DNA from: Mobula hypostoma
Lineage: Eukaryota
Assembly: GCF_963921235.1 (NCBI RefSeq)
Contig: NC_086107.1
Location: forward strand, 99,698,001 to 99,762,000
Reading direction: 5' to 3'
Length of the DNA: 64,000 nucleotides
Shown: one piece after another, positions 19,344 through 59,664 of the stretch
Position numbering within the stretch: the stretch's first letter is position 1
How the letters are laid out: each line of letters opens with the position of its first letter
Position numbers and translations under genes: made by a program
Notes under the pieces: model-generated
The model's database searches: none
What the model was told of the DNA's origin: nothing
What the model saw: only the letters and a program-made list of their open reading frames with translations

Positions 19344-20324
19344 TGTTACGTACCCCGTAACTGGGTTGCCAAACCAGCAGAAATGGATCACTCAGTTGGA
19401 GTCTGGATTACTAGAACTAAGAAAGTTTTATTAAAGAAACAAGCAACACAGTACTCTAATCGAAAGGATAATAAATGCAACAGTTCAGCAATGATAAACA
19501 CCCATGTACACAGAATTAAGATAACAGGATCAACCAAGCTCTATCGTTGTCTAGGGGTAAATGACCAATTTCAAAGTGACACAAAGTCCAGTTCAATTTA
19601 GTTCAGTTCGCAGTAATCGTTGCCATGGCAATGGACAATGTGGGGGGAAGGAGAGAGAGAACGGGAACGACTGATCATTCAGAACGGCTTCCACTCACAG
19701 ACCTGCGATATTGCTCACAAGCAGCTTTCGGGCCTGTCCTCTGTGATGTCACCTGGGGTCACCGACTGTGACCCCTCCTCCAGATGCGGTCGATCCTCTG
19801 CAGTGAACCCGGCACCCAAGCAAGGGCGGACACACACCGGGTTCCCGCTGATCGTACCTTTCCACCCTGTACGTCTAAGGCTGATCCCGCGATCAGCTGT
19901 CTAAGAGCTTCCCACCGACTTGTGAGAGGTGCACCACTTCCAGGGTCTCGTTACCTCGGGGTGTCGTGTGTGTCCTGCCTTAGCGAACCTGTCCCTTTTT
20001 ATCCCCCTGCTGGGGTATAGCCTGTCCATCACTTCAAACAGTTCAGGGTTCAAAGGGGGAGCCGCTCTAGACAGCTCTCTCTCCCGTCCCTTCATTACAC
20101 ATCTCCAGGTCGCCTGTCCAGCACTTCAAACAGTTCAGGGTTCAAAGGGGGAGCCGATCTTGATAATACCCAGACTGATGGCTCCTTCATTAACATCTCC
20201 AAATGCTGCTTCATTGTGTTCCTTATCTCTCCCTCCCCTGAGGACAGGTGGCAGACCAACTGCTGATGCCACTGGTGCTATCCCAGGCCAGCAAACATCT
20301 TAATTTATGTGTATTCTCATCACA
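19344..20324 (-). mobile_element. Solo LTR of the Gmr1-like family
   Basis: TG...CA termini and a perfect 4-bp TSD GACC (19340-19343 and 20325-20328). It is an inverted homolog of the LTRs at 24570 and 28588. Confidence 0.92.
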
Positions 20325-23838: not shown

Positions 23839-25517
23839 ACAACCCTGCGATTCATTTATTGTGGCATACTCTACAAATCCATATCAGACCATAACCATAA
23901 CAGAATCAATGAAAGACCGCACCAAATAGAGTATTCAACCAATGTGCAAAAGACAACAAAATATGCAAATACAAAAAGAAAGAAATAATAATAATAATAT
24001 TAATTATTACTAGACAAGCTGGTGACCCGTTGGGGCACCCTTTGAGAGAAGGGTAGTGCAGTCTGATGTGATGTGCTTTGGAAATTAAAGAAGAAAAACT
24101 CAGTTTATTAAAGAAGAAAGACTCGTAGCAAGACAAGTATAGCTCCTCCTCGTTTAATGAAGGACACTTTTGATGACAACATTTCTGGTTGATCTGCCAT
24201 CCTTAAACGACATGATGGAAATATGGAAGTAAAACCTGACTAGAGAGCTTAAAAAGAGGATTTTCATAGCAGTCACAGAGTCCATTCTCACGTACGGATG
24301 TGAGACGTGGACACTCACCAAGACTATGCGAAAGTCTCTAGATGGTTGCATACACAAATGCTCCGGATGGCTCTTGACGTGAGTTGGCAACAGCACATGA
24401 CGAACGTTGAGCTCTATAACAACCTACCGATGCTCACTACTAAAATCGAGGCGAGAAGACTGCAACTAGCTGGGCACTGTCTACGCCACCCCGAGCTACC
24501 TGCCAGCCTAGTCATCATATGGGAGCCCAAGCACGGGAGGATGAACCCTGGGCGCCCTCCCAAGACTGTTGTGACAAGAATACACATAGATTAAGATGTT
24601 AGCTGTCCTGTGTGATCAGCAGTTGGTCTGCCACCTGTCTTCAGGAGAGAGAGAGATAAGGAAAACAATGGAGCAGCATTTGGAGATGTGTAATGAAGGG
24701 ACGGGAGAGAGAGCTGTCAAGAGCGGCTCCCCCTTTGAACCCTGAACTGTTTGAAGTGATGGACAGGCGATACCCCAGCAGGGGGATAAAAAGGGACAGG
24801 TTCACTAAGGCAACACACACACAACACCCGAGGTAACGAGACCCTGGAAGTGGTGCGCCTCTCACAAGTCGGTGGAAAGCGTTTGGATGGCTGATCGCGG
24901 GATCAAGCCATAGACGCTCAGGGTAGAAAGGCACGATCGGCGGGAACCTGGTGTGTGTCCACCCTTGCCTGGGTGCCGGGTTCACCGCAGGGAAACGATT
25001 CGTATCTGGAAATGGAGGGGTCACGGTCGCTGACCTCAGATGACATCACAAAGGACTCGCCCGAAAGCTGACTGCGAAGGTCTGTGTGTGGAAGCCGTTT
25101 GAATATTCATTCGTTTTGCTCTCTCTCTCCTTCCCCCCACTGTCTGCGAACTGAACTGAACTAAATTGAACTGAACTTTGCGTCACTTTGAAATTGGTCA
25201 TTTACCCCTAGACAACGATAGAGCTTGATTGATCCTGTTATCTTAATTCTGTGTACATGTATGTTTATCATTGCTGAACTGTTGCATTTATTATCCTTTT
25301 GATTAGAGTACTGTGTTGCTTGTTTCTTTAATAAAACTTTCTTAGTTCTAGTAATCCAGACTCCAACTGAGTGATCCATTTCTGCTGGTTTGGCAACCCA
25401 GTTACGGGGTACGTAACATAAGTGGGGTTCTCATCCGCAATTTTGAACGCTAAATTTGGGACGGAGTAAATTGATTGGGTCAAAATTCCCAAAAGAAAGA
25501 AAAGACAAACAGCAGAA

Positions 25518-27892
25518 ATGGAGGCTGAGGAATTTACAAAGGCACCGACCTTGGAGGCATTAGAGGATGCCAGGAAATCGGAATTGGTAGCTGTGGCCAA
25601 ACGGTTGACTCTTGCTAAGGGGAAGTCGACAATGAGGAGAGAGGAGATACACAGAGCTATCGTAGAGCACTATGTATCTAAAGGTGTGTTTCCCCAAGGC
25701 GAGCTGGAGGTGGTGTCTATTGAAAAACCTGCTGGAGACGCGGTACAGGTGCAGCTTGAAAAACTGAGACTCGAGCACGAGTTCCGGGTACGGCAGTTGG
25801 AGCGAGAAGAGAAAGAGAGGGACAGACAGTTGGAGAGAGAAGAGTTAAAAAGGTGGGAGAGAGAGAGAGAGAGAGACAGCTGGAGTGAGAGGAGAAACAG
25901 AGGGAAAGGGAATTCGAGCTGGAGAAGTTAAGGATAAGGGCAGAGCAGGGGCTCTTGCCGAACCAAGGTGGAGGGTTCTGGGCGATCCAGGAGGTTAGGC
26001 TGGTTCCCGCATTTGACAATACCGACGTGGATCGGTACTTTCTCCATTTCGAAAAAGTGGCTATAAGTCAGGACTGGCTGAGGGATAAGTGGGTTGTTTT
26101 GCTTCAGAGTGTACTGAAAGGGAAAGCCCAAGAAGCTTACTCAGCTTTGTCGGCGGAAGATGCCCAGAGGTACGAGGTGGTGAAAGAGGCCATCCTCAGG
26201 ATTTATGAGTTGGTCCCGGAGGCATACCGACAGAGGTTCCGGAATGCGAGGAAGCGGTGGGACCACACGTATTTAGAGTTTGCCCGTGAGATGCAGACAT
26301 ATTGTGAGCGTTGGTGCGCCTCGAAGGGGGTAGAGGGGGATTATGACAGACTGCTACAGCTGATCCTGATTGAGCAGTTTAAAGGTTGTGTCCCTGAGGG
26401 TATGAGACCCTACCTAGATGAGAAAGAGGCAGCCACGTTAGCCACAACTGCTAAGTTAGCGGATGAGTATGCGTTGACGCATAAAATGAAGTTTGCCCCG
26501 AGTAAAGGCTACCAGAAGGGTAGTCAGGACGGCAGGGAGAGTCCGCCGGAAAAGTCAGAAAGTAAGCCGGGGACTAGTGAGAAGGATAAGGTAGACCGGG
26601 AGCAGTCTGGTAGGAAGTCTCCTGGGGTCGTCTGTTATAATTGCGGGAAAGTTGGACACTTTGCGTCCAGGTGCTTTGCCCCAAAGAAGGAGACGGGAAA
26701 AGGAAAAACGGCGATTTTGACTGGCTGTATCGAGCTGGTAAACGAACCGCTAGGGAAGGACAGGTCTGCCAAAGTTCAGGAAGGGCGCGAGAGGTTTATC
26801 TCGGCCGGATTGGAGTCAGTGAAGGAGGGGTTAAAACCAGTTCCAGTGCAGATCTGGAAAGACACGGGAGCGTGTCAGTCACTAATACTGAAGAGTGTAT
26901 TAGAGTTTAGCTCAGAGACCCAGACTGGGGAGGTCAAGGTCAAAGGTATTGGAGAAGGGACAGAGACAGTCCCTTTGCACCAGGTAGACTTACAAAGCAA
27001 CCTGGTCTCTGGACTAGTCACAGTCGGGGTGAGGTCCAAATTACCGATGAAAGGCATGGAAGTCTTGCTCGGTAATGACCTCGCCGGGGAAATCGTGTTC
27101 CTAGCCATGAGATTGACAGGTCAGCCTGCCAGCATTGAGGCCCTGCCCATGGACTCACAGGTTCATCACGGGACCGCGGTAGTAAATTTAGCTGAAACGT
27201 TTCTGCCAGCCTTGTACAAGAAGGGGGTAGAAAGTGAAAAGAAGGAGTGTAGTGAGGCAAGAGGTAGTGAGGGAGCTGAGACAGATGTAGCATTAACCAG
27301 GAAAGAATTTGTGCAGACGCAGGAGCGAGACGAGGGGCTGATGGTTTTGGCAGAGACAGCTCTCTCTGACACTGACTTGACAAGGGAACTAGTAGGCTAT
27401 TGTGCGGAGGAGGAAGTGCTAAGGAAGAAAGGGAAATCAAGTACAGTACCCGCAGATGAGGAATGGGGGGTGGTGCAAAAGAGCTATGGGGATGAGGTTT
27501 TTAACCTGGCTCACAAGGTACCCCTCGGTGGACATTTTGCGGTACTGGAGGGAACAGTTGGTGGAATCATGAAAGAGGTTTACCGGCTGCCCAGGGGGAA
27601 GGATGTTATTGATTATGGTCGACGCGAACTGAGACGGTCACCGGCTTTTGATATGCTAACAAACCTAGTCGGTGTTAGCGCGGAAATCAATGAAGCTAGG
27701 GTACCCCCGATAAGAGAAAAAAAACATTTTGAAAAGATGAGTATGGTATCGACCAGATGGGAGAAGGCTATTGTTTTGGCCAGGTCTGCTGATAAGGTCT
27801 CTCCCTTAATCCCCGAACAAAGCGACTCTTTAGGAGAAGTAATTAAACGACTCGCACCCGTGTGTTTGGTTGTCCCGAGGCGATGCAAATAA
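25518..27892 (+). pseudogene. Retrotransposon gag (coiled coil, SCAN-like capsid, CCHC knuckle) plus aspartic protease and integrase H2C2 remnant
   Basis: ATG at 25518, a frameshift in the (GA)n run near 25860 and one TGA, then 645 open codons. Motifs: PEAYRQRFR...LILIEQF, CYNCGKVGHFASRC, KDTGACQSL, LLGNDL, LAHKVPLGGH. Confidence 0.85.
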
Positions 27893-27952
27893 CTGGGACG
27901 TTGGATGGTGTCTGTTACACTAGGGTAACCTAGCAAGCAACATTCATATAGA

Positions 27953-28465
27953 ATGAGTAATTCAGTGACTAAAGGGCTGACGAACACAGAGGTGTGTATT
28001 GGCAATGTAATACGGCTGTCTGAAGCCAGCTTGATAGTGAACCTTGAAAAAAATGAATTCGGCCACACAAGGGTCACTTACCTGGGAATTGTGGTGACAC
28101 AGGGGCAGCTGGCAGCGATGCAAGCTACAGTGCAGGCTATCTCTGACATCCCAACCCCGACAGACAAGAGGGCCCTCAGAAGGCTCTTGGAGATGGTGGG
28201 GTACTGTAGGAAGTTTTGCAATAACTCTGCGGTCACTACCCCTCCCCCTCCTACTAAGCCCTTGCGAGAGAAAACTAAGTCGGAATGGGACGACCCTTGT
28301 TATTGTGGTCCGGGACAAAACCAAATGAGAGATTACATTGATCGCAATTCATCAGTGTTTTTGGCCACTATGAAGTTTGCTAAGTTGGAGCCTGGTCTAA
28401 GGGATTATTAATAACACATATAAAAGGAACAGAAAATGTGATGGCTGACTGTCTGTCAGGTGTTG
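27953..28465 (+). pseudogene. Decayed RT thumb/connection and RNase H C-terminal remnants
   Basis: LIVNLEKNEFGHTRVTYLG, RALRRLLEMVGYCRKF and ITHIKGTENVMADCLS. No YxDD catalytic motif seen. Confidence 0.75.
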
Positions 28466-29614
28466 ACAACTTCAAACTCGCTGTGTTAGCCAAATAGCTG
28501 ATAAAGATGTATACTTGTGTGTGTATCAAATAATGTATTCATGTTTGTAATTTTTACCCCCCGGTAAAAATCCTTAAAGGGGGGAAGTGTGACGAGAATA
28601 CACATAGATTAAGATGTTAGCTGGCCTGTGCTGGCACCAGTGGGATCAGCAGTTGGTCTGCCACCTGTCTTCAGGAGAGAGAGAGATAAGGAAAACAATG
28701 GAGCAGCATTTGGAGATGTGTAATGAAGGGACGGGAGAGAGTAGCAGAAGGAGAGCTGTCAAGATCGGCTCCCCCTTTGAACCCTGAACTGTTTGAAGTG
28801 ATGGACAGGCGATACCCCAGCAGGGGGATAAAAAGGGACAGGTTCACTAAGGCAACACACACACAACACCCGAGGTAACGAGACCCTGGAAGCGGTGCGC
28901 CTCTCACAAGTCGGTGGGAAGCGTTTGGATGGCTGATCGCGGGATCAAGCCATAGACGCTCAGGGTAGAAAGGCACGATCGGCGGGAACCTGGTGTGTGT
29001 CCACCCTTGCCTGGGTGCCAGGTTCACCGCAGGGAAACGATTCGTATCTGGAAATGGAGGGGTCACGGTCGGTGACCTCAGATGACATCACAAAGGGCTC
29101 GCACGAAAGCTGACTGCGAAGGTCTGTGTGTGGAAGCCGTTTGAATATTCATTTGTTTTGCTCTCTCTCTCCTTCCCCCCACTGTCTGCGAACTGAACTG
29201 AACTAAATTGAACTGAACTTTGTGTCACTTTGAAACTGGTCATTTGCCCCTAGACAGCGATAGAGCTTGATTGATCCTGTTATCTTAATTCTGTGTACAT
29301 GTATGTTTATCATTGCTGAACTGTTGCATTTATTATCCTTTTGATTAGAGTACTGTGTTGCTTGTTTCTTTAATAAAACTTCCTTAGTTCTAGTAATCCA
29401 GACTCCAACTGAGTGATCCATTTCTGCTGGTTTGGCAAACCCAGTTACGGGGTACGTAACAGTATGGTCAACAGGCTCCTAGAAGACAGCGGCGTGGCTA
29501 ATGTAGGTGAACTGAACACACTGATGAGGGTGAGGGAGAAGTGGAGAGTCCGTCATCGTGGCCGATGCCAGCCCCCTAGGCCTGAATCAACATAGTAATA
29601 GTAGTGCCATCCTT

Positions 29615-29995
29615 CAAGAATACTGTAACATTTTCATTTCTTTTTCCCTGGCTTAAAGCCAAATACAGCTGACCATGCTGGAATATTGGTTTCTCCAAAT
29701 AAATCAACACATTCTCCATGGTTTGACCTTGCTCCTTGTATGTAGTCATAGCAAAGCATGACTGTATCGGGAACTGACTCCTCTGAAGAGGGACATCTTC
29801 CCCTTCTGATAAACTGAGAGTAATTCTTGGGATCATGACAATGTCATTTTTGAATGCACCAATGTTTATCTTTGCTACGATGAGATTGTCGTTCAGTTCG
29901 TCCACCATCATTCGCGTTCCATTGCGAAGCCTCGGTGGATCCAAGTTCCTCATTGAAATGATGGGAGACCCCCTCTTCAATTCCAGTTTATGTGG
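29615..29995 (-). pseudogene. Helitron PIF1-family helicase C-terminal fragment
   Basis: PPHKLELKRGSPIISMRNL...NGTR...IPRI...QFPIQSCFAMTTYKEQGQT...HGQLYLALS. Confidence 0.85.
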
Positions 29996-30356
29996 TGGCT
30001 GCTGTGAGCATCGTGAGGTGCTGCTGAGGCTGGCCGTGTGCACGCGTCGCGGTGTCGTGTCGCGGTTTCCATGAAAGGTGGAATCGGCTCGGGTTGTGGA
30101 AAACGGGGCCTGTTGATGGACGAGTGAACAATTTTATATGAATATATAACCCTGAACTTTGCATGCATTCTGTAAGTTAGCGCTTTTTAAGTTGATTTAG
30201 TCAAAAAAAGTGCCGCTGTAATGCACCATTTGGGCTAATTAGAGGTCACAAACAGACAAACAGAGCATGAGAATTTTAGTAGTATGTAAATTATTATTAT
30301 AAAAAGCAATAAATACTGAGGACATGAGATTAAGAATCCTTGAAAATGAGATCCGA

Positions 30357-33167
30357 CAGTGCCTATAAAAAGTAACTCCCTTTGGGAGTTTTTATGTTTT
30401 AATGTTTTGCAACATTGAATCACAGTGGATTTAATTTGGCTTTTTTAACACCGATCAACAGAAAAAGACTCATGTCAAAGTGAAATCAGATCTCTACAGG
30501 GTGATCTAAATTAATTCCAAATACAAAACACAAAATAATTGATTGCATAAGTATTCACCTCCTTTAATATGATACTCCAAATCATCACTGGTGCAGCCAG
30601 ATGGTTTTAGAAGTCACATAATCAGTTAGGGTGTCCTAGCTATTTATATAAACCTCTGTGCAATCAAAACGTTTCAATGGGCTGTAGCAAAAATACACCC
30701 GTATCTAGAAGGTCCAACTGCTGGTGAGTCAGTATCCTGACAAAAACTACACCATGAAGACAAAAGAACACTCCAAGCAACTCTGCGAAAAGGTTATTGA
30801 AAAGCACAAGTCAGGAGATGGATACTAGAAAATTCCAAGATGCTAAATATCCCTTGGAGTACAGTTAAGTCATTCATCAAAAAATGGAAAGAATATGGTA
30901 CAGCTGTAAATCTGCCTAGAGCAGGCCATCCTCAAAAACTGAGTGACCGTGCAAGAAAGGGACTAGTGAGGGAGGCTACCAGAAGATCTATGACAATTCT
31001 GGAGGAGTTACAAGATTCAGTGGCTGAGATGGGAGAGATTGCATACTGCAATGGTTGCCCGGGTTCTTCACCAGTTGCAGCTTTATGGGAGAGTGGCAAA
31101 GAGAAACCACTGTTGAAAAAAACTCACATGAAATCTCAGCCAGAGTTTGCCAGAAGGCATGTGGGAGACTCTGAAGTCAGCTGGAAGAAGTTTCTATGGT
31201 TTGATGAAACCAAAATTCAGCTTTTTGGCCATCAGACTAAATGCTATGTCTGGTGTAAGCCAAACACTGCGCATCATCAAAAACACACCATCACTAGCAT
31301 GAAACCTGGTGGTGGCTGCATCATGCTGTGGGGACGCTTCACTGCAGCAGACCCTGGAAGGCTTGTGAAGGTAGAGGGTAAAATGAATGCAGCAAAATAC
31401 AGGGAAATCCTGGAGGAAAACCTGATGCAGTCTGCAAGAGAACTGCAACTTGGAAGATTTGTTTTCCAGCATGACAATGACCCCAAGCATACAGCCAAAG
31501 CTACACAGGAATGGCTTAAAAACAACAAAGGTAATGTCCTGGAGTGGCCAATCCAGAGTTCAGACCTCAATCCAATTGAGAATTTGTGGCTGGACTTGAA
31601 AATGACTGTTCACTCACTTTTGACAAGGTCCCACACAGGAGATTAGTGTGCAAACTTAAAGCACATGGTATTGGGGGTAAGGTATTGGTGTGGGTGGAGA
31701 ATTGGTTAGCAGACAGGAAGCAAAGAGTGGGAATAAACGGGACCTTTTCAGAATGGCAGGCGGTGACTAGTGGGGTACCGCAAGGCTCAGTGCTGGGACC
31801 CCAGTTGTTTACAATATATATTAATGACTTGGATGAGGGAATTAAATGCAGCATCTCCAAGTTTGCGGATGACACGAAGCTGGGTGGCAGTGTTAGCAGT
31901 GAGGAGGATGCTAAGAGGATGCAGGGTGACTTGGATAGGTTGGGTGAGTGGGCAAACTCATGGCAGATGCAATTTAATGTGGATAAATGTGAAGTTATCC
32001 ACTTTGGTGGCAAAAATAGGAAAACAGATTATTATCTGAATGGTGGCCGATTAGGAAAAGGGGAGGTGCAACGAGACCTGGGTGTCATTATACACCAGTC
32101 ATTGAAAGTGGGCATGCAGGTACAGCAGGCGGTGAAAAAGGCGAACGGTATGCTGGCATTTATAGCGAGAGGATTCGAGTACAGGAGCAGGGAGGTACTA
32201 CTGCAGTTGTACAAGGCCTTGGTGAGACCACACCTGGAGTATTGTGTGCAGTTTTGGTCCCCTAATCTGAGGAAAGACATCCTTGCCATAGAGGGAGTAC
32301 AAAGAAGGTTCACCAGATTGATTCCTGGGATGGCAGGTCTTTCATATGAAGAAAGACTGGATGAACTGGGCTTGTACTCGTTGGAATTTAGAAGATTGAG
32401 GGGGGATCTGATTGAAACGTATAAGATCCTAAAGGGATTGGACAGGCTAGATGCGGGAAGATTGTTCCCGATGTTGGGGAGGTCTAGAACGAGGGGTCAC
32501 AGTTTGAGGATAGAGGGGAAGCCTTTTAGGACCGAGGTTAGGAAAAACTTCTTCACACAGAGAGTGGTGAATCTGTGGAATTCTCTGCCACAGCAAACTG
32601 TTGAGGCCAGTTCATTAGCTATGTTTAAAAGGAAGTTAGATATGGCCCTTGTGGCTACAGGGGTCACGGGGTATGGAGGGAAGGCTGGGTTCTGAGTTGG
32701 ATGATCAGCCATGATCATAATAAATGGCGGTGCAGGCTCGAAGGGCCGAATGGCCTACTCCTGCACCTATTTTCTATGTTTCTATGTCTATGTTTCTAAT
32801 CCTCATGCAATCTGACAGAGCTTGTGCAGTTTTATAAAGAATAATAGGGAAAAGTTGCAGTGTCCTGATCTGCAATGCTGATAGAGACCTATCCACATAG
32901 ACTCAAGGCTGTAATTGTTGCCAAAGGTACATTTACTAAATATTGATTTGAAGGGGGTGAGTAATTATGCAATCTATTATTTTGTGTTTATTAAATGTAA
33001 TAAATTTTGACCAATTTGTAGAAATTTGTTTTTACTTTGACACAAAAGAGTCTTTTCTGTTGATCAGTTTTTTTAAAAATCAAACTAAATCCACTGTGAT
33101 TCAATGTTGTAAAACAATAAAACATGAAAACTTCTAAGTGGGGTGTGAATACTTTTTATAGGCACTG
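30357..33167 (+). mobile_element. Tc1-like transposon (long TIRs of about 200 bp) with a disrupted DD34E-type transposase at 30754-32946
   Basis: TIR CAGTGCCTATAAAAAGTA with its inverse at the right end, followed by TA (the left flank reads GA). Motifs WFDETK, QHDNDPKH and DLNPIENLW. The C-terminus resumes after the CR1 insert. Confidence 0.92.
31618..32797 (+). mobile_element. Young 5'-truncated CR1-type LINE inserted in the Tc1 transposase
   Basis: Uninterrupted RT ORF from FDKVPHRRL through GVPQGSVLGP and KFADDTK to the stop at 32695, then a 3' UTR and (TTCTATGT)n tail. No TSD. Confidence 0.92.
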
Positions 33168-35699: not shown

Positions 35700-38600
35700 A
35701 CTTCCAAAGCCCAGGGGAAGAGTTTGATGCTTACAAGGTGGAGAGGATAGCACATGTGTACGTGATAGACGTGCTTTCCAGAAAGGGCTTTGGGGAGAGT
35801 GTCAGGAGAAGAATCCAACTATTCTACATGGAAATCAGTGGTGGAGTCCAAATCAGTGGGTTTGAGACAAACAGCTTCCCTGCGAAGGCTGGAACCAGTC
35901 AAGAGGGAGTCCACTGCCCCCCACCTTGCTTCTGTATTGCAGTGTTGCCGAATCCATCAGGAAGAACGAGGGCATAAGAGGGGTGACATGGCCAGGCAGT
36001 GCATGGACGCGAGTCAAAGCATCTTGCTCCATGGAAGATGCCGCCATCTTCTGCTCAGATCCAAGGTCAGGTCACAGATAGGTCGACATCTGTGACTGGT
36101 ATCGGGGACCGGACTTAACCGTAGGAAGAGTGAGGCCATGCTCTTCAGTAACAGGCCCGACTGATCGGGTGTCCCCTTCACTGTCAGGCCGACTATCTGA
36201 AGGTGTCGGGGTTCGGCAGGGCTGAGGTGAGTAACAACAATTGTCTGGAGCAGGTTGAGAAGGTCAAGGAAAAACTGGGTTTGTGGAAATAGCATTCTCT
36301 GTCGGTAACTGGGAAGAACTTGGTTATCAGGCGCGATGTGCTCTCAGGGCTGCTGTACTTGGCCCAGGTGGGCCTGTTCCTTGCTCTTGGTAGTAACCTG
36401 GGACTTTTTCCAGTCTATCTGAGAGACCAAAATAGAGCGATGTCCTGGGTATGACTCTAAACTACAACCAGTGATGAGGCTCTGATTGGGGACTTTCAGT
36501 GCTTTGGGAAAAGTGGAGTTGCCCCTTAGTCATTCATTGCTCCCAGGGCCGCTCTGACCTGGAACAGTAGCACCTGCAAGGGTTCCTGCTCAGGATACGA
36601 GCAAAGGCCAACGGCAGATCCGGCAGGTTCAGTAACTGAACTTATGACGGAGAAGGCAGATGAGCTACGACCTCAAGTGACAACGGCTATAGTACAGGCG
36701 GATGAACACTTGGGAAGAGAAATGGCGCTTTCTTCAGTTCGCCCAACAGTAGGCAGTAGCAAACCGCCGTTGCTTTTTGCTAAGAAAACCACGGTCAAAC
36801 TCACAAAATGTATAACACAACAACAGCGTCAAGAGGATCTTTCAAGACAACTCTGAAGATGTTTCGCTTGGTAGGGTTGATTCTGGTCAGCAGGGGATCC
36901 CCGACCATCATCAAGCTACTGCTCATAAAATTCACGTAACACAAAAGAAAATTATTGCCACTTGGAATGTAAGAACCCTATATCAAGCAGGAAGATTGAA
37001 CAATGTGATAAATGAAATGGAAAGACTAAAAATTAACATCATGGGAATTAGCAAAGTTCGTTGGATAGGTGCTGGAACATGTCAGAATAGAAATAAAACA
37101 CTAATTTATTCTTGTGGAACACCTCATACTAATGGAGTAGGAATTCGTATGGATGAAAACATGACAAAAAGTGTTTTAGGACATTGGGCAATATCAGAAA
37201 GAGTGGTCCTTGTTAAATTCAGAGGGCAACCATTTGATTTAGCAATTATACAGGGATATGCTCCAACAATAGATGGAACAAATGAGGAGATAGATAAATT
37301 CTATGGAGAGCTTGAACAAGCAAAGAATGGATGCAAATCTCAAGATATTGTTATTGTCGTGGGAGATCTAAATGCTAAAGTAGGACAAGGTGCTGATGGA
37401 AATACCATAGGAAAATTTAGGCTAGGGAAAAGAAATGAAAGAGGTGAGAAATGGGTGGAATAGTGCAAGATCATTATGAATACCTACTTTAAAAACCATC
37501 CATGACGCTTGTGGACCTGGAGAAGTCCAGGTGATAACACTAGAAATCAAATTGACTTCATTACTATAAACCAAAGATTTAGAAACTCAGTGACTCAATG
37601 CAAAACATATCCAGGTGCAGACTGTAAGAGTGAACCATAACTCAGTAATATGTCACGTAAAAGTAAAACTTAAAAAACTACAGATGCAAAAACCTGAACA
37701 ATCCCTTGACTATGTGCAATTAATTAAAGAAAACTTAAGGCAAGAATTTACAATTGAAGTAAGGAATAGATTTCAAAGTCTAGAAATAGAATCTGTTGAA
37801 GATGATAGCAATCATGCAGAAATGAAGTTTAACTCTCTGAAGGATGCCTTGGTAGAATCAGCAAAGTCAGTGATTCCTAAGAAAGAAAAAAGCACAAAGA
37901 ATAAATGGATGACAGATGAAATCAAAAATCTAATGGAAGAAAGCAGACCGAAGAAAGCAAATCCTATGGAATATAAATTCTTAGATTAAAAAATTAAAAG
38001 CTTCTATCAAAAAGCCAAAAAACCAGGAATGCGAGCAATTAGAAAGAATCCCTATTACTGATCGAAAAAAGGGTACATAACAAATCTAGAATACCACTGG
38101 TAACTGCCCCTCTGTTCTCCAGGTGGATGTTTGAAAGCAACGAACATGGAAAAAGATGAGATTATAAACAGATGGACTGAGTATATTCAGGAATTATCAT
38201 GGTATATTCAGGTATATTCAGGAATTATCATGGAAAAAAATGAGATTATGAACAGATGGACTGAGTATATTCAGGAGTTGTTTGAAGACGATCGAGGCGA
38301 AAAATCAGAAATTAAGAAGAAAATTGAAGGTCCAAGTATTTTAAAATCTGAAGTTCGTAATGCAATAAATAAGATGAAGAAAGGAAAGGCAGCAGGTCCT
38401 GATGAATTAGCAATAGAACAAATTATCGCCCTTGAAGATTATGGAATTGAAAAACTTACTGATTTAATCAATGACATTTATGAGACTGGAATAATACCAG
38501 AAGAGATGAAAACATCAGTATTTATCACTCTTCTTAAGAAACCTGGAGCAATAGAACGTGAATTACATAGGACCATAAGTTTAATGAGTCTTATCACTAA

Positions 38601-40310
38601 GATACTTCTAAGAATTTTGATGAAAAGAGCTAAAAGTAAGATACAAGCTGAAATAGGTAAAGAACAATGTGGTTTTGTCAAAGACAAAGGTACAAGAAAC
38701 GCAATATTGATGTTAAGGATACTATCAGAACGAGCTATTCAAGTGCAAAAAGATTTGTTTGTTTCTTTTATCGACTATACAAAAGCATTTGATTAAGTGA
38801 AGCACAATAAGTTATTTGAAATATCACAGAAAACTCTTGATCTAGATTCGAAAGACCTCCGCCTAATTAGAAATCTTTACTGGAAACAAACTGCCGCTGT
38901 AAGAATAGATGGAGAAGTAAGTCAGTTTACGAAAATCAAGAGAGGCATTAGACAAGGGTGTGTTTTCTCCCCTGATTTATTTAATGTGTACAGTGAGACA
39001 ATATTACAAAAAATAAGAGACATCTTGGGAATCAAAGTTGGCGGTGAAAACATCAGTAATTTCAGATATGCAGATGACACTGTGTTAATTGCAAGTACGG
39101 AGGAAGAACTACAAAACTTAATTGATATAGTTGTTGAAAAAAGTGCAAAAATGGGTCTATCTATCAATCGCAAAAAGACAGAACATATGGGAATATCCAA
39201 AAAGAAGGAGAATCCTATCTGCAGGCTGAGAATAAATGGGGAAGACGTAAAACAAGTACAAAACTTTTGCTACTTAGGAAGCTGGGTGACATCAGATGGC
39301 AGGTGCGACATGGACATCAAAAGAAGAATAGGGATGGCAAAAGACACCTTTACAAGAATGATAAATATACTGACCAATACTAAGCTGAGCATGACAACCC
39401 GTCTCAGAGTACTGAAATGTTACGTTTATCCAGTTATGTTATGTGGCTCAGAATGTTGGACAATATCTAGTAACATGAGGAAACGAATTGAAGCAGCAGA
39501 GATGTGGTTTTTGAGGAGGATGCAAAGAATATCATGGACGAAACGAATATCTAACGAGGATGTCATGAACAGAGCAAGCACAAAAAGAGAAATAATGTAT
39601 TAGATCATGAGAAGGCAACGTAAATTCATTAGACATGTGATTAGGAAAGATGAGTTAGAATGCACGGTAATTATGGGAAAGATTGAAGGGAAGAAAGCAA
39701 GAGGAAGGCAAAGACAAATGATGATGGAGACAGCAGCCAGAGAACTGGAAATGAATACCAATGAATTGATCCACTTGACCCGAAACAGGAGTGTGTGGGC
39801 CATGGCAGTCAAAGCTCAAACTGGGCACGGCACCTGATGATGATGATGAATATAGAGCGAGTCCGACAGGCCACGAAGCACAATTCCCCTGAGAATGGCA
39901 GAAGTGTACCGAATGTTGCCCTCATTCCAATGACCACCTTCATGTGTGGCCATATCAGATGGTGTGTGGACCTAAGTTACATGGGCACCAAGTATCACTA
40001 TACACCCAGGGGTTCTATCAGACCCCAGTGCAGCGAAGGATGGGTCCTGCCCTGTTGCCGCGCAACATCCCAGTTAGCTGGACATTGGCACGCTACCTGC
40101 CTTTCGTGCAAGTGTTCTTCCGAGCAAGCACTTTGACTGCAGGTCTATCAGGCAGTGGTCTGCATGGAACACCCTGCAGAGGTGCACCCGATGGACACGG
40201 TTCCCTGTGCAGACTGTCCAGACCATATGGCAAAATGCCTCATGGTCAAACTTCACCAACAAGCAACAAGACCTCACTTGGGTGGTGGCGAGGGGGCCAA
40301 GGTTTAGAAG
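35700..40310 (+). mobile_element. Old L1/Tx1-like LINE remnant split by an RTE insertion
   Basis: RT-like HVYVIDVLSRKGFGESVRRRIQLFY at 35738. The reading TKIER|VRQATKHNSPENGRSVPNVALI continues across the insertion. Boundaries approximate. Confidence 0.6.
36441..39848 (+). mobile_element. Apparently full-length RTE-clade LINE with a disrupted APE-RT ORF
   Basis: IATWNVRTL, VGDLNAKVG, FIDYTKAFD, GIRQGCVFSP, FRYADDTVL, a (TGA)n tail, and a 12-bp TSD with one mismatch (AAAATAGAGCGA 36429-36440, AATATAGAGCGA 39849-39860). Confidence 0.92.
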
Positions 40311-46699: not shown

Positions 46700-48356
46700 T
46701 TAATTGAAGCAACACACATAAAAGTTGCTGGTGAACGCAGCAGGCCAGACAACATCTCTAGGAAGAGGTACAGTCGACGTTTCAGGCCGAGACCCTTCGT
46801 CAGGACTAACTGAAGGAAGAGTGAGTAAGGGATTTGAAAGTTGGAGGGGGAGGGGGAGATCCAAAATGATAGGAGGAGGGGGAGGGATGGAGCCAAGAGC
46901 TGGACAGGTGATAGGCAAAAGGGATATGAGAGGATCATGGGACAGGAGGTCTGGGAAGAAAGACAAGGGGGGGGGAACCCAGAGGATGGTCAAGGGGTAT
47001 ATTCAGAGGGACAGAGGGAGAAAAAGGAGAGTGAGAGAAAGAATGTGTGTATAAAAATAAGTAACAGATGGGGTACGAGGGGGAGGTGAGGCATTAGCAG
47101 AAGTCAGAGAAGTCAATGTTCATGCCATCAGGTTGGAGGCTACCCAGATGGAATATAAGGTGTTGTTCCTCCAACCTGAGTGTGGCTTCATCTTTACAGT
47201 AGAGGAGGCCATGGATAGACATGTCAGAATGGGAATGGGATGTGGAATTAAAATGTGTGGCCACTGGGAGATCCTGCTTTCTCTGGCGGACAGAGCGTAG
47301 GTGTTCAGCAAAGAGGTCTCCCAGTCTGCGTCGGGTCTCGCCAATATATAAAAGGCCACATCGGGAGCACCGGACGCAGTATATCACCCCAGCCAACTCA
47401 CAGGTGAAGTGTTGCCTCACCTGGAAGGACTGTTTGGAGCCCTGAATGGTGGTAAGGGAGGAAGTGTAAGGGCATGTGTAGCACTTGTTCCGCTTACACG
47501 GATAAGTGCCAGGAGGGAGATCAGTGGGGAGGGATGGGGGGGACAAATGGACAAGGGAGTTGTGTAGGGAGCGATCCCTGCGGAATGCAGAGGTGGGGGG
47601 GAGGGAAAGATGTGCTTAGTGGTGGGATCCCATTGGAGGTGGCGGAAGTGACGGAGAATAATATGTTGGACCCGGAGGCTGGTGGGGTGGTAGGTGAGGA
47701 CCAGGGGAACCCAATTCCTAGTTGGGTGGCGGAAGGATGGAGTGTGAGCAGATGTACGTGAAATGGGGGAGATGCGTTTAAGAGCAGAGTTGATAGTGGA
47801 GGAAGGGAAGCCCCTTTCTTTAAAAAAGGACATCTCCCTCGTCCTGGAATGAAAAGCCTCATCCTGAGAGCAGATGCGGCGGAGACGGAGGAATTGCGAG
47901 AAGGGGATGGCGTTTTTGCAAGAGACAGAGTGAGAAGAGGAATAGTCCAGATAGCTGTGAGAGTCAGTAGGCTTATAGTAGACATCAGTGGATAAGCTGT
48001 CTCCAGAGACGGAGACAGAAAGATCTAGAAAGGGGAGGGAGGTGTCGGAAATGGACCAGGTAAACTTGAGGGCAGGGTGAAAGTTGGAGGCAAAGTTAAT
48101 AAAGTCAATGAGCTGTGCATGCGTGCAGGAAGCAGCGCCAATACAGTCGTCATTGTAGCGAAGGAAAAGTGGGGGACAGATACCAGAATAGGCACGGAAC
48201 ATAGATTGTTCCACAAAGCCAACAAAAAGACAGGCATAGCTAGGACCCATACGGGTGCCCATAGCTACACCTTTAGTTTGGAGGAAGTGGGAGGAGCCAA
48301 AGGAGAAATTATTAAGAGTAAGGACTAATTCCGCTAGACGGAGCAGAGTGGTGGTA
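46700..48356 (-). mobile_element. Penelope-like element (RT plus GIY-YIG endonuclease), 5' truncated and frameshifted
   Basis: GVAMGTRMGPSYACLF, FLRYNDD, LPFLDL and GVIYCVRCSRCGLLYIGETRRRL, plus a 3' terminal repeat region. Confidence 0.92.
46771..46808 (-). ncRNA. Minimal type I hammerhead ribozyme motif in the Penelope terminal repeat
   Basis: UAGUC-CUGACGA-AGG(gucucgg)CCU-GAAA-CG-UC-GACUG: intact core, stems I and II pair, and stem III is a palindromic ACGU. Confidence 0.7.
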
Positions 48357-48404
48357 ATATTTAATTGACTTTGTTTATTCATGTGCAATTCATTTGTAGA
48401 TTTT

Positions 48405-49092
48405 AGAGACATAGAAACAGAAAACCTACAGCACAGTACAGGCCCTTCAGCCCATAAAGCTGTGCCAAACATGTCCTTACCTTAGAACTACCTAGACTTA
48501 CCCATAGCCCTCTATTTTTCTAAGCTCCATGTAGCCATCCAGGAGTCTCTTAAAAGACTCTATCGTTTCCACCTCCACCACCACCGCCGGCAGCCCATTC
48601 CACACACTCACCACACTCTGTGCAAAAAAATTACCCCTGATATCTCCTCTGTACCGAATTCCAAGCACTTTAAAACTATGCCCTCTCATGCTAGCCATTT
48701 CAGCCCGGGGGAAAAGCCTCTGACTATCTGCACAGTCAATGCCTCTCATCATCTTATACACCTCTATCAGGTCACCTCTCATCCTCCATCACTCCAAGGA
48801 GAAAAGGCCGAGTTCACTCAACCTACACTCATAAGGCATGCTCCCCAATCCAGGCAACATCCTTGTAAATCTCCTCTGCACCCTTTCTATGGTTTCCACG
48901 TCCCTCCTGTAGTGAGGCGACCAGAATTGAGCGCAGTACTCCAAGTGGGATCTGACCAGGGTCCAATATAGCCGCAACATTACCTCTCGGCTCCTAAACT
49001 CAACCCCACGGTTGATGAAGGACAATGCAGCTTTGAGTATCCTATGGACTTGGACCCCAAGATCCCTCTGATCCTCCACACTGCCAAGAGTC
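48405..49092 (-). mobile_element. CR1 3' fragment
   Basis: LVRSHLEYCAQFWSPHYRRDVETIERVQRRFTRMLPG and RGDLIEVYKMMRG. Confidence 0.85.
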
Positions 49093-56060: not shown

Positions 56061-56600
56061 GATTCTGATTCCCATTCCCTTCCCCTCACCTCTGTACACG
56101 ACCATCTCACCACTATCTCCCTGTCCTGATAAAGGGTGTCAGCCCGAAACATTGACAGTTCATTTCCCTCCACAGATGCTGCCTGGCCCGCTGACTCCCT
56201 CCGGCAGATCGTTTGTTGTTTCAGACTCTGGCATCTGCAGTCTCTGCTGCCTCCAGGATGATTGAGTGGACGGGATTGCTCTGCTAGGTGCTAGCATTTA
56301 CACAACAGGCCGAATGGCTTCCTCCAGCGCTGTAACAGTTCTCTTGTTTCACGCTGCTGGAGTAGAGAATAGGAAGGGTCCCGGAATGTCAGGATTGGGA
56401 GCTTTGCCCAGGAACGGTGAGGGCTCTCTGATCACACCGCTCCCCCGCGAATCCGTGGGTCAGTGGCTGGTACCTGGGCGACCCACGTGGCGCCTTCCTC
56501 CTCAGGCCATCCCGGCTGCATTTCACGCCCCACACTGCCCATGAGCCTGGGCTGTGCGGCTGCTGTGACGGAGATCGGTCCTGAGGATGGGTTTCTCGCC

Positions 56601-57831
56601 ACTGGACGGAGGGATGGGAGGGACTGGAGGGACGGAGGGATGGGACTGGACGGAGGGGTGGGACTGGACGGAGGGATGGGACTGGACAGAGGGGTGGGAC
56701 TGGACGGAGGGGTGGGACTGGACGGAGGGATGGGACTGGACAGAGGGGTGAGACTGGACGGAGGGATGGGACTGGAGGGAGGGGTGGGACTGGATGGAGG
56801 GATGGGACTGGAGGGATGGAGGGATGGGACTGGACGGAGGGGTAGGACGGGATGGAGGGATGGGACTGGACGGAGGGAGGGATGGGACTGGAGGGAGGGA
56901 GGGGTGGGACTGGACGGAGGGATGGGACTGGATGGAGGGATGGGACTGGAGGGATGGAGGGATGGGACTGGAGGGAGGGGTGGGACTGGACGGAGGGATG
57001 GGACTGGACGGAGGGAGGGATGGGACTGGAGGGAGGGAGGGGTGGGACTGGAGGGACGGAGGGGTGGGACTGGATGGAGGGATGGGACTGGAGGGACGGA
57101 GGGATGGGACTGGAGGGAGGGGTGGGACGGAGGGAGGGAGGGGTGGGACTGGACGGAGGGAGGGATGGGACTGGAGGGAGGGAGGGGTGGGACTGAAGGG
57201 ACGGAGGGATGGGACTGGACAGGGGGCTGGGACTGGAGGGAGGGTTGGGACTGGAGGGAGGGAGGGATGGGACTGGACGGAGGGAGGGATGGGACTGGAG
57301 GGAGGGGTGGGACTGGAGGGATGGAGGGATGGGACTGGACGGAGGGGTGGGACTGGAGGGAGGGAGGGGTGGGACTGGACGGAGGGATGGGACTGGAGGG
57401 ACGGAGGGATGGGACTGGATGGAGGGGTGGGACTGGAGGGAGGGAGGGGTGGGACTGGAGGGAGGGATGGGACTGGAGGGACGGAGGGATGGGACTGGAG
57501 GGAGGGATGGGACTGGAGGGAGGGAGGGGTGGGACTGGACGGAGGGAGGGATGGGACTGGAGGGAGGGAGGGGTGGGACTGGACGGAGGGATGGGACTGG
57601 AGGGACGGAGGGATGGGACTGGAGGGAGGGAGGGGTGGGACTGGACGGAGGGGTGGGACTGGAGGGACGGAGGGATGGGACTGGACGGAGGGGTGGGACT
57701 GGAGGGAGGGAGGGATGGGACTGGAGGGACGGAGGGATGGGACTGGAGGGAGGGATGGGACTGGAGGGAGGGAGGGGTGGGACTGGAGGGAGGGAGGGGT
57801 GGGACTGGACGGAGGGATGGGACTGAGGGAG
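56601..57831. repeat. G-rich variant minisatellite, GGGACTGGA-(GGGA/CGGA)n-GGG(A/G)T
   Basis: About 1.2 kb of GGGACTGGA cores with variable 4-nt purine spacers. Confidence 0.95.
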
Positions 57832-58150
57832 GCGCGGTCGCCCATGCAGAGCGTCCCGAGCCTCATGACCACCCGGCTGAAGCAAAGGTACGACCCCTCT
57901 CCCGCGGCCCTGTGCCAAAGGACGGCGGCGGGATTAACGTGAAGGCGTCCCGCTGGAATCTGGAGCAGCTCACAGCTCACAGCCTGCTGTGGGGCCACAT
58001 CTGAGAGAGGGAAGGAACTCCCAACCTCTTGGATCAAAAACCCCCGCGACAGGACTGAGAGCGGTGGGGTGCGGGGTTGGGGGGATGGCCAGTATAGAGA
58101 GAGCGAGAGGGACTATTGGTGATGGGTGGAGTGAGGGAAGGCAGGCAGGT

Positions 58151-58868
58151 AGAGCTGGGTGGGGAGGGGGAGGGGAGGAGAGCTGGGTGGGGAGGGGGAG
58201 GGGAGGGGAGGGGAGTAGAGGGGAGGAGAGCTGGGTGGGGAGGGGGAAGGGAGGGGAGGGGAGTAGAGGGGAGGAGAGCTGGGTGGGGAGGGGGAAGGGA
58301 GGGGAGGGGAGGAGAGGGGAGGAGAGGGGAGGAGAGCTGGGTGGGGAGGGGGTGGGGAGGGGAGGAGAGCTGGGTGCGGAGGAGCGCTGGGTGGGGAGGG
58401 GGAGGGGAGGGGAGGGGGAGGGGAGGAGAGCTGGGTGGGGAGGGGGTGGGGAGGGGGTGGGGAGGGGAGGAGAGCTGGGTGGGGAGGGGAGGGGAGGGGA
58501 GGGGAGGAGAGCTGGGTGGGGAGGGGGAGGGGAGGGGAGGGGAGGAGAGCTGGGTGGGGAGGGGGAGGGGAGGGGAGGGGAGGGGAGGAGAGCTGGGTGG
58601 GGAGGGGGTGGGGAGGGGAGGAGAGCTGGGTGGGGAGGGGGAGGGGAGGGGAGGGGAGGAGAGCTGGGAGGGGAGGGGAGGGGAGGAGAGCTGGGTGGGG
58701 AGGGGGTGGGGAGGGGAGGAGAGCTGGGTGGGGAGGGGGAGGGGAGGGGAGGAGAGCTGGGTGGGGAGGGGGTGGGGAGGGGAGGAGAGCTGGGTGGGGA
58801 GGGGGAAGGGAGGGGAGGGGAGGAGAGCTGGGTGGGGAGGGGGAGGGGAGGGGAGGGGAGGAGAGCTG
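58151..58868. repeat. G-rich variant minisatellite, GAGAGCTGGGTGGGGAGGGG plus (GGGGA)n
   Basis: About 0.7 kb, seen directly in the sequence. Confidence 0.95.
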
Positions 58869-59664
58869 CAGCTGGGAGGTTGAGGGCAGGTGAGTGGTAG
58901 GTGGAGGTAGACAACCAGGGAAGAAAATGGAGGATCTCTGGGAATCAGGGGCACCCATTCCCTGAAGGAAACCCCAGCCAGAGGGACATTAGCCTGGCCA
59001 TTGTTGCAAACTTGGATCCTGATGGCGGGGTGAAGGGGTGAATCTCCACTCTCCGCTTATCAGCACCCACACCAAGTGGAACAGACTCCAGTTCCATAGC
59101 ACGCACAGCAGCTGTGATCAGTTCTTGTTCCCCACTCTCGGCAGGTTTTATGCAATCCATTTGTAATTGTAAATTTCTCCCAGTGTGTAGAACCTGGGGG
59201 GGTTGGTGGCAATGTGGAGTGTAGGCGGCTGGGTGGGGTGGTGACCTTATAAACTCATGAGGGATTGTGATGAAGCAAATAGCTTCAGACAAGAGAATCC
59301 TCCAGTGATCTAAACGGATCTCCCCAAGATCAAGATGCACGACGTAGGAGAAGAAAGGTGGCCAGAACGGTCAGAAACACTTCCTGTAGCACCAGCGTCA
59401 ACTCCTACATCCACCAGGGAGGCGGTCCCAGAACCTGAAACTGTTTCACAGTCACAAGTCTCTCCTGCCAAACAGAGGGTCAAGAAAGACATTATCCCAC
59501 AAGAGTAAGACAGCCGCCTCAGAGATTAAATCTTTAGGCCTGACTGGGACAAATTATAATTTACAGTACTCTGCTGTGGATGTCTGTATATAGTATTTGT
59601 ATTATACAATACACTGTGCATATAGTTGAAATGTATTCTCTATAGATTTGGCGTTTAAGCAGGG

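Follow-up and report, generated by a model that had tools for sequence, protein, structure and literature searches.

A Gmr1-like LTR retrotransposon family of Mobula with a collapsed pol and a retained gag-protease region

Gmr1-like elements of the Ty3/Gypsy group are described as encoding a SCAN-type capsid followed, in a single frame, by protease (PR), integrase (IN), reverse transcriptase (RT) and RNase H (RH) (PMC8220671; bioRxiv 10.1101/2025.03.03.638093). Here we describe a 4892-nt Gmr1-like long terminal repeat (LTR) element, at positions 24570-29461 (+) of a 64,000-nt stretch of Mobula hypostoma DNA (contig NC_086107.1; hereafter the window, to which all coordinates refer), and the family to which it belongs. 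Like the described elements, the Mobula family has a SCAN-type capsid (PF02023, E 4e-13) and an integrase remnant upstream of an RT remnant, and its closest full-length relatives share the PR-IN-RT-RH order; unlike them, it lacks all catalytic pol cores family-wide. A first-pass annotation of the stretch had assigned the element to the Gmr1 type from its SCAN-like capsid and gene order, and the assignment holds: the Pfam match secures the capsid, and tblastn of full-length relatives against the window finds the pol remnants in the order PR-IN-RT-RH.

Several described families offer a comparison. The semi-autonomous wheat Gypsy families RLG_Sabrina_SA and RLG_WHAM are reported to keep the Gag-protease frame intact while lacking RT and integrase, to be present in many copies and to depend on a partner (PMC9744471). 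The Mobula family resembles them in these features, and it fits the same class as sugar beet families with GAG/PROT and a decayed pol (PMC13570524). The wheat and sugar beet families differ in being plant elements of other Gypsy lineages, with a known partner in wheat, and the accessible parts of the two papers mention no open, fused remnant tail for them (PMC9744471, PMC13570524). Plant non-autonomous LTR subfamilies are also described elsewhere (PMC4079200). In mouse, IAP 1Δ1 is likewise a non-autonomous vertebrate element in which an internal deletion created a fused gag-pol frame, and its fusion protein is reported to aid retrotransposition in cis (review PMC6466679); in the Mobula family, by contrast, gag-PR is whole, the deletions are several, and the tail has diverged by about 40% since the collapse. 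The zebrafish LTR family Bik-1/Bik-2 (BHIKHARI) resembles the Mobula family in having gag without pol, recent mobility and a partner not found, and differs in being an endogenous retrovirus with gag only and a demonstrated developmental role in the host (PMC12067270).

With these precedents (Bik-1/2, PMC12067270; IAP 1Δ1, PMC6466679), a non-autonomous vertebrate LTR element that retains gag is not the novelty that the first-pass annotation had implied. Its label, TR-GAG-like, must also be dropped. TR-GAG elements are described as plant elements of <4 kb with a GAG-only open reading frame (ORF) and a 5-bp target-site duplication (TSD) (PMC4350172). The Mobula element shares with them LTRs, a polypurine tract, a TSD, one ORF with Gag, the lack of a working pol and, often, a missing partner (PMC4350172), and it also has a primer-binding site (PBS), although this site is degenerate and putative and the TSD is of 4 bp rather than 5. 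Unlike them, it is 4.9 kb long and carries a protease and a pol-remnant tail of ~370 residues in frame. Because its length exceeds 4 kb and its ORF is not GAG-only, the original definition of TR-GAG excludes it. We found no description of a Mobula Gmr1-like Gag-protease family in the literature; Repbase, Dfam and supplements were outside the scope of this search, and a catalogue entry may exist.

Deletions in pol and the family that shares them

Three large blocks are missing from pol (sizes and junction positions are approximate, being hand-read from alignments). The first deletion, at 27625/27626, removed ~290 residues between the integrase zinc finger and the integrase end, including the core and most of the C-terminal domain; the second, near 27955, removed ~130 residues of the RT fingers and palm; and the third, at 28300/28301, removed ~87 residues of the connection and RNase H. 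A small deletion of 18 residues follows the YxDD strand (28012/28013). The absence of the integrase core, the RT palm and most of RNase H, as first reported, is confirmed by these deletions, with one correction: the YxDD strand remains at 27995-28006 as CIGN, with both aspartates gone, and it reads CIGN in 13 of 13 family rows.

A protein search yielded 1321 matches among 8000 candidates. Among the 120 matches listed, Mobula hypostoma and M. birostris account for 17 RefSeq proteins, with identities of 67-94%, and cluster look-ups added 18 more; before alignment and rate tests, C-termini that were frameshifted or spliced were cut from 18 database proteins. We found that the three large junctions of the window copy (integrase, RT and RNase H) are common to 16/16, 12/12 and 8/8, respectively, of the family Mobula database proteins that reach each site, and hence are not private to this locus. 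The 16 proteins of the first-junction set are spread over 13 contigs, which differ in length, and two Mobula species. These counts leave out P0015, P0016, P0257 and P0014. The integrase-bearing P0015, used as the outgroup, is a Mobula protein that reaches the first site with its zinc finger intact, and it is sister to the family (99/97 and 99/98; 94/92 in a separate analysis). Contigs from four organisms and four studies, which are independent of annotation, each cross one or more of the deletions, with >31 letters to either side. The first deletion is bridged in run X9 and the second in both X9 and X1; the 18-residue deletion is bridged in X14, and the RNase H deletion in X14 and X11. In addition, 111 contigs of run X1 pass from an LTR end into dissimilar flanks. 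No loose ends at deletion junctions occurred among the contig rows listed, a result with no bearing on the helper question. Together, these sequence comparisons indicate that the collapse of pol is a family-wide trait and that the family, deprived of catalytic integrase, RT and RNase H, is to be regarded as a non-autonomous derivative of a Gmr1-like element.

Five proteins from four contigs (P0004, P0242, P0245, P0248 and P0250; 939-1004 aa) run unbroken from the gag methionine to a common C-terminus and are collinear with the window. Pfam found SCAN and CCHC only in four of these five and in P0003, whereas a full-length Pristis relative matched SCAN, CCHC, integrase, RT and RNase H in that order. 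These five copies, but not the window copy, have an intact Gag-protease frame with RT and integrase absent, as semi-autonomous elements do, and the family amplified after the loss of pol. Element sequence is also annotated in the RefSeq models P0004, P0010, P0247 and P0252 as host-gene isoforms (source names MACC1, PISD, UBE2G2 and PPM1L), which may be an artefact or may reflect LTR-driven chimeric transcripts.

The order of events can be read from P0273 of M. birostris. This protein shares the three large deletions with the family and still has the 18-residue piece, one YxDD aspartate, the first zinc-finger cysteine and part of the PR-IN linker. Because it has the large deletions yet keeps pieces that were lost later, the three large deletions came first. 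In the tail, P0273 and P0246 differ at 135 of 325 residues (~40%), and about four fifths of the polarised changes fall on the family side (17-25 versus 3-6). The gag-PR tree forms a ladder of subfamilies with a terminal, star-like young group. The claim that pol decayed before the window copy inserted is upheld, as the deletions are family-wide and present also in the older P0273; the collapse long predates that insertion.

Constraint on gag-protease and the open tail

All selection tests were made at the protein level. In relative-rate tests on eight trios against integrase-bearing sisters, neither the capsid/nucleocapsid (NC) region (p 0.15-1) nor the protease (p 0.33-1) was accelerated, and the integrase remnant was accelerated in 8/8 trios (p 1e-5 to 1.3e-3). 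Six intact relatives share 68-88% identity with one another but 41-47% with the RT/RNase H remnant; capsid/NC is 75-86% identical to the integrase-bearing sister P0015. Within the family, in a fixed set of 10 rows, shared variants are rarer in gag (9/320 columns) than in the tail (31/358; p 0.0016). The protease DTG motif is present in 24/25 rows and the CCHC motif in 23/26. These results support the conclusion that gag-PR is under normal constraint and the pol remnants are not, and they do so more clearly for capsid/NC than for protease.

A structure model of P0004 is confident in gag and protease, and the predicted local distance difference test score (pLDDT) is <50 for most of the tail, where the alignment was poor. 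The best fold matches of the model were retroviral proteases (best E 0.01, probability 1.0); Foldseek gave no match to it at E up to 0.001, the protease matches being weaker than that. In a PDB profile search, most of the signal came from the RT and integrase of full-length rows, and the only addition was kinship to Ty3 pol.

In the five uninterrupted copies, the ~370 residues of pol remnants are fused after Gag and protease in a polyprotein of about 940-1000 residues, and in the window all pol remnants except the last ~30 ancestral residues lie in the gag frame. The chance of remaining stop-free over 100 neutral replacements is 0.002-0.011 (nonsense/missense ratio 0.045-0.061), and the 5-7 later indels in the tail all preserve the frame. 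Because the tail is open despite ~100 replacements and several indels, selection would be for the frame and not for the sequence: these data suggest, with moderate force, that selection acts on the open frame, or on its translation in cis, rather than on what the tail encodes.

A proposed mode of spread and its alternatives

An ancestor with a single gag-pol frame suffered three in-frame deletions, which removed the integrase core, the RT fingers and palm, and the RNase H core. The collapsed lineage then kept transposing through successive subfamilies, as the shared junctions, the dispersed loci and the subfamily tree show. We propose that Gag and protease are retained for particles that the element would assemble and mature around its own RNA in cis, and that RT/RNase H and integrase would be supplied by a related autonomous element whose polyprotein co-assembles. 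The tail, non-catalytic and fast-drifting, stays open, most likely because a frame translated almost to the 3' LTR would stabilise the RNA or help its packaging in cis, by analogy with mouse IAP 1Δ1. We consider it probable that the family spreads in this way: it would make Gag and protease itself and package its own RNA preferentially, with RT/RNase H and integrase drawn from an autonomous relative that co-assembles. That RT and integrase are borrowed in trans we infer of necessity.

A number of observations speak against parts of this proposal. No Mobula protein occurs among the 120 full-length matches listed, the best being a Pristis protein at 40%, and a search with the tail gave five matches, all of them family members, and no helper. 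Genome annotation leaves out most repeats, and for this reason the failure to find a helper is weak evidence; P0015 is no more than a candidate relative, and scans of viral and metagenome contigs found no relative. Within the family, shared variants in the protease (5/107) do not differ significantly from those in the tail (31/358; p 0.22). As to the open tail, the figure of ~100 replacements is an extrapolation, and at the 29 that are directly polarised the stop test is not significant (p ~0.2); moreover, database proteins are ascertained as open frames. Several copies stop early in the tail, two pairs of them at the same place (P0001/P0002 and P0005/P0013), and in run X1 about one third of a low depth at 27926 has the window's stop. 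Given these recurrent early ends and the X1 stop, the full tail may therefore not be strictly required.

Could the family instead be a passive passenger? In such a LARD-like element, the RNA would be packaged wholly by helper proteins and the open gag-PR frame would be a leftover. The many broken copies and the non-significant difference between protease and tail are in keeping with this idea, but since the collapse the tail has diverged by ~40% while capsid/NC stayed 75-86% identical to P0015 and unaccelerated, and we regard it as improbable. We give somewhat less credence still to a capsid that serves the host, with Gag-PR acting as a dominant-negative restriction factor or, like zebrafish Bik Gag, in development. 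Young gag-only elements with host roles do have precedent (PMC12067270), and some copies are annotated within host gene models; the many dispersed LTR copies, the star-like young subfamily and the decay of the window copy argue the other way.

That a single copy decayed privately, or that segmental duplication spread the element, is largely refuted and very improbable. The window copy does have its own frameshift, stops and imperfect TSD, but identical junctions lie on many chromosomes in two named species, and the 111 X1 contigs with dissimilar flanks and a solo LTR with its own TSD likewise speak against this alternative. A further possibility would add to the semi-autonomous proposal rather than replace it: the IN N-terminal and RT-thumb remnants may serve as an adaptor that dimerises with helper Pol and draws it into the parasite particle. 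The frame does stay open, the RT thumb is better preserved than the other remnants (41-47% identity with intact relatives), and residues 868-901 and ~604-647 are modelled at pLDDT 60-77. Yet the tail is the fastest-changing part of the protein, most of it is modelled at pLDDT <50 (with a poor alignment there), and truncated copies recur; we therefore hold an adaptor role to be unlikely, if less so than passive carriage.

The window copy, its surroundings and a stingray parallel

The element is bounded by a 5' LTR of 849 nt (TG...CA; 24570-25418 (+)) and a 3' LTR of 874 nt (28588-29461 (+)). The two show 16 substitutions in 849 aligned sites, for a Kimura two-parameter distance of 0.019 (1.9%), as well as three indels of 12, 12 and 1 nt, and the interior measures 3169 nt; the first-pass annotation, with about 15 substitutions and 3 indels over about 850 bp and an interior of 3.2 kb, was close on both counts. 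Its description of the insertion as fairly young agrees with the LTRs but less with the gag-PR tree, in which the window-copy branch measures 0.055 versus 0-0.017 in the youngest subfamily: the copy is young in a relative sense only. A probable PBS, placed by its position directly after the LTR (25422-25440 (+)), is degenerate in the window copy and in the dominant subfamily, and a polypurine tract, recognised by its sequence, precedes the 3' LTR (28576-28587 (+)). In the dominant subfamily the PBS (25422-25445) is several letters off a G-richer form found in run X14, which may resemble the end of a proline tRNA.

The TSD is imperfect, with CTGT at 24566-24569 (+) and GTAT at 29462-29465 mismatched at 2/4 positions despite the LTR divergence of 1.9%. 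This may be due to chance or to sloppy integration, or the insertion may be older and have undergone LTR conversion. The insertion lies in a decayed reading frame that continues on both sides of the element and is presumably an RTE-type LINE (long interspersed nuclear element), with no Pfam match. No empty-site copy of this interrupted host was found within the window. A solo LTR of the same family lies at 19344-20324 (-), with ~92% identity at aligned sites and a perfect 4-bp TSD (GGTC); relative to the LTRs of the element, it has a ~94-nt internal duplication in U3.

The gag N-terminus, with the ATG at 25518, a helical domain and a coiled-coil repeat, occupies 25518-25931 (+), and its frame is broken in the GA-rich part of the repeat near 25860-25890. 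This repeat (25800-25900) varies greatly in length among copies. Out of frame with the ATG, a 667-codon open frame at 25889-27892 (+) covers the capsid, nucleocapsid, protease and start of the pol remnant. It contains the capsid C-terminal (SCAN) domain at 26216-26485 (+), the source of the PF02023 match; a CCHC zinc knuckle at 26630-26674 (+) (zf-CCHC, PF00098, E 4e-6); and an aspartic protease at 26795-27125 (+), its limits approximate, with DTG at 26861-26869, located by alignment and by the model of the relative P0004. No Pfam match to integrase, RT or RNase H was found in this frame. The integrase N-terminal remnant (27296-27625 (+)) retains two zinc-finger histidines, and its cysteine pair is gone. 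The end of integrase and the RT N-terminal remnant follow at 27626-27958 (+), where premature stops occur at 27890, which ends the long frame, and at 27926. The RT palm/thumb remnant, with the CIGN strand, lies at 27959-28300 (+), and the RNase H remnant at 28301-28458 (+), the family frame ending at 28409-28411 and the last ancestral residues lying in other frames. Because of the gag frameshift and the two stops, the window copy is dead. The long open SCAN/CCHC/DTG frame reported for it is real in its 667 codons, Pfam matches and DTG, but the gag ATG is out of frame and the stops are premature, so that, contrary to what had been supposed, the copy does not itself keep a working gag-PR frame.

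Elsewhere in the window, a Pif1 helicase 2B-domain fragment at 29576-30133 (-) (Pfam E 3e-8) is probably a Helitron remnant. Other open frames look like a Tc1 transposase (30801-31646 (+)), a CR1/L2 RT (31580-32695 (-)), an RTE LINE (36816-39603 (+)) and a Penelope-like RT with GIY-YIG (47094-48481 (-)). Long, GC-skewed tandem repeat arrays with open frames on both strands occupy 56400-59050.

In proteins of the stingrays Hypanus sabinus and Hemitrygon akajei, what comes after gag-PR in the same frame is not pol but a second, decayed copy of capsid-NC-protease. Proteins of this type (P0019, P0021-P0024, P0026, P0027 and P0029-P0031, from stingrays and one further contig; the longer ones have the full duplicate) form their own clade (100/99), putatively within the same Gmr1-like clade as the Mobula family, and possibly represent an independent Gag-protease parasite. 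We suggest, tentatively and with considerable doubt, that one myliobatiform Gmr1-like clade gave rise at least twice to long-lived Gag-protease parasites, with a collapsed pol in Mobula and a decayed second capsid-protease in stingrays, and that the in-frame tail is a selected cis element acting through translation or as an adaptor for helper enzymes.

With the Mobula family, semi-autonomous Gag-protease LTR parasites, mainly known from plants, are extended to a vertebrate and to its Gmr1 lineage, from which the SCAN domain arose. Dozens of ray proteins labelled "uncharacterized" in RefSeq are copies of the element, as are some host isoforms. Because the stages of pol loss are preserved, from the intact relative through the first deletions to later decay, it becomes directly testable why gag and protease were kept and whether selection acts on frame length, a question raised by mouse IAP 1Δ1. 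If the suggested reading of the Mobula and stingray families and their tails is true, the way in which single-frame LTR elements dispense with pol would follow a general rule.

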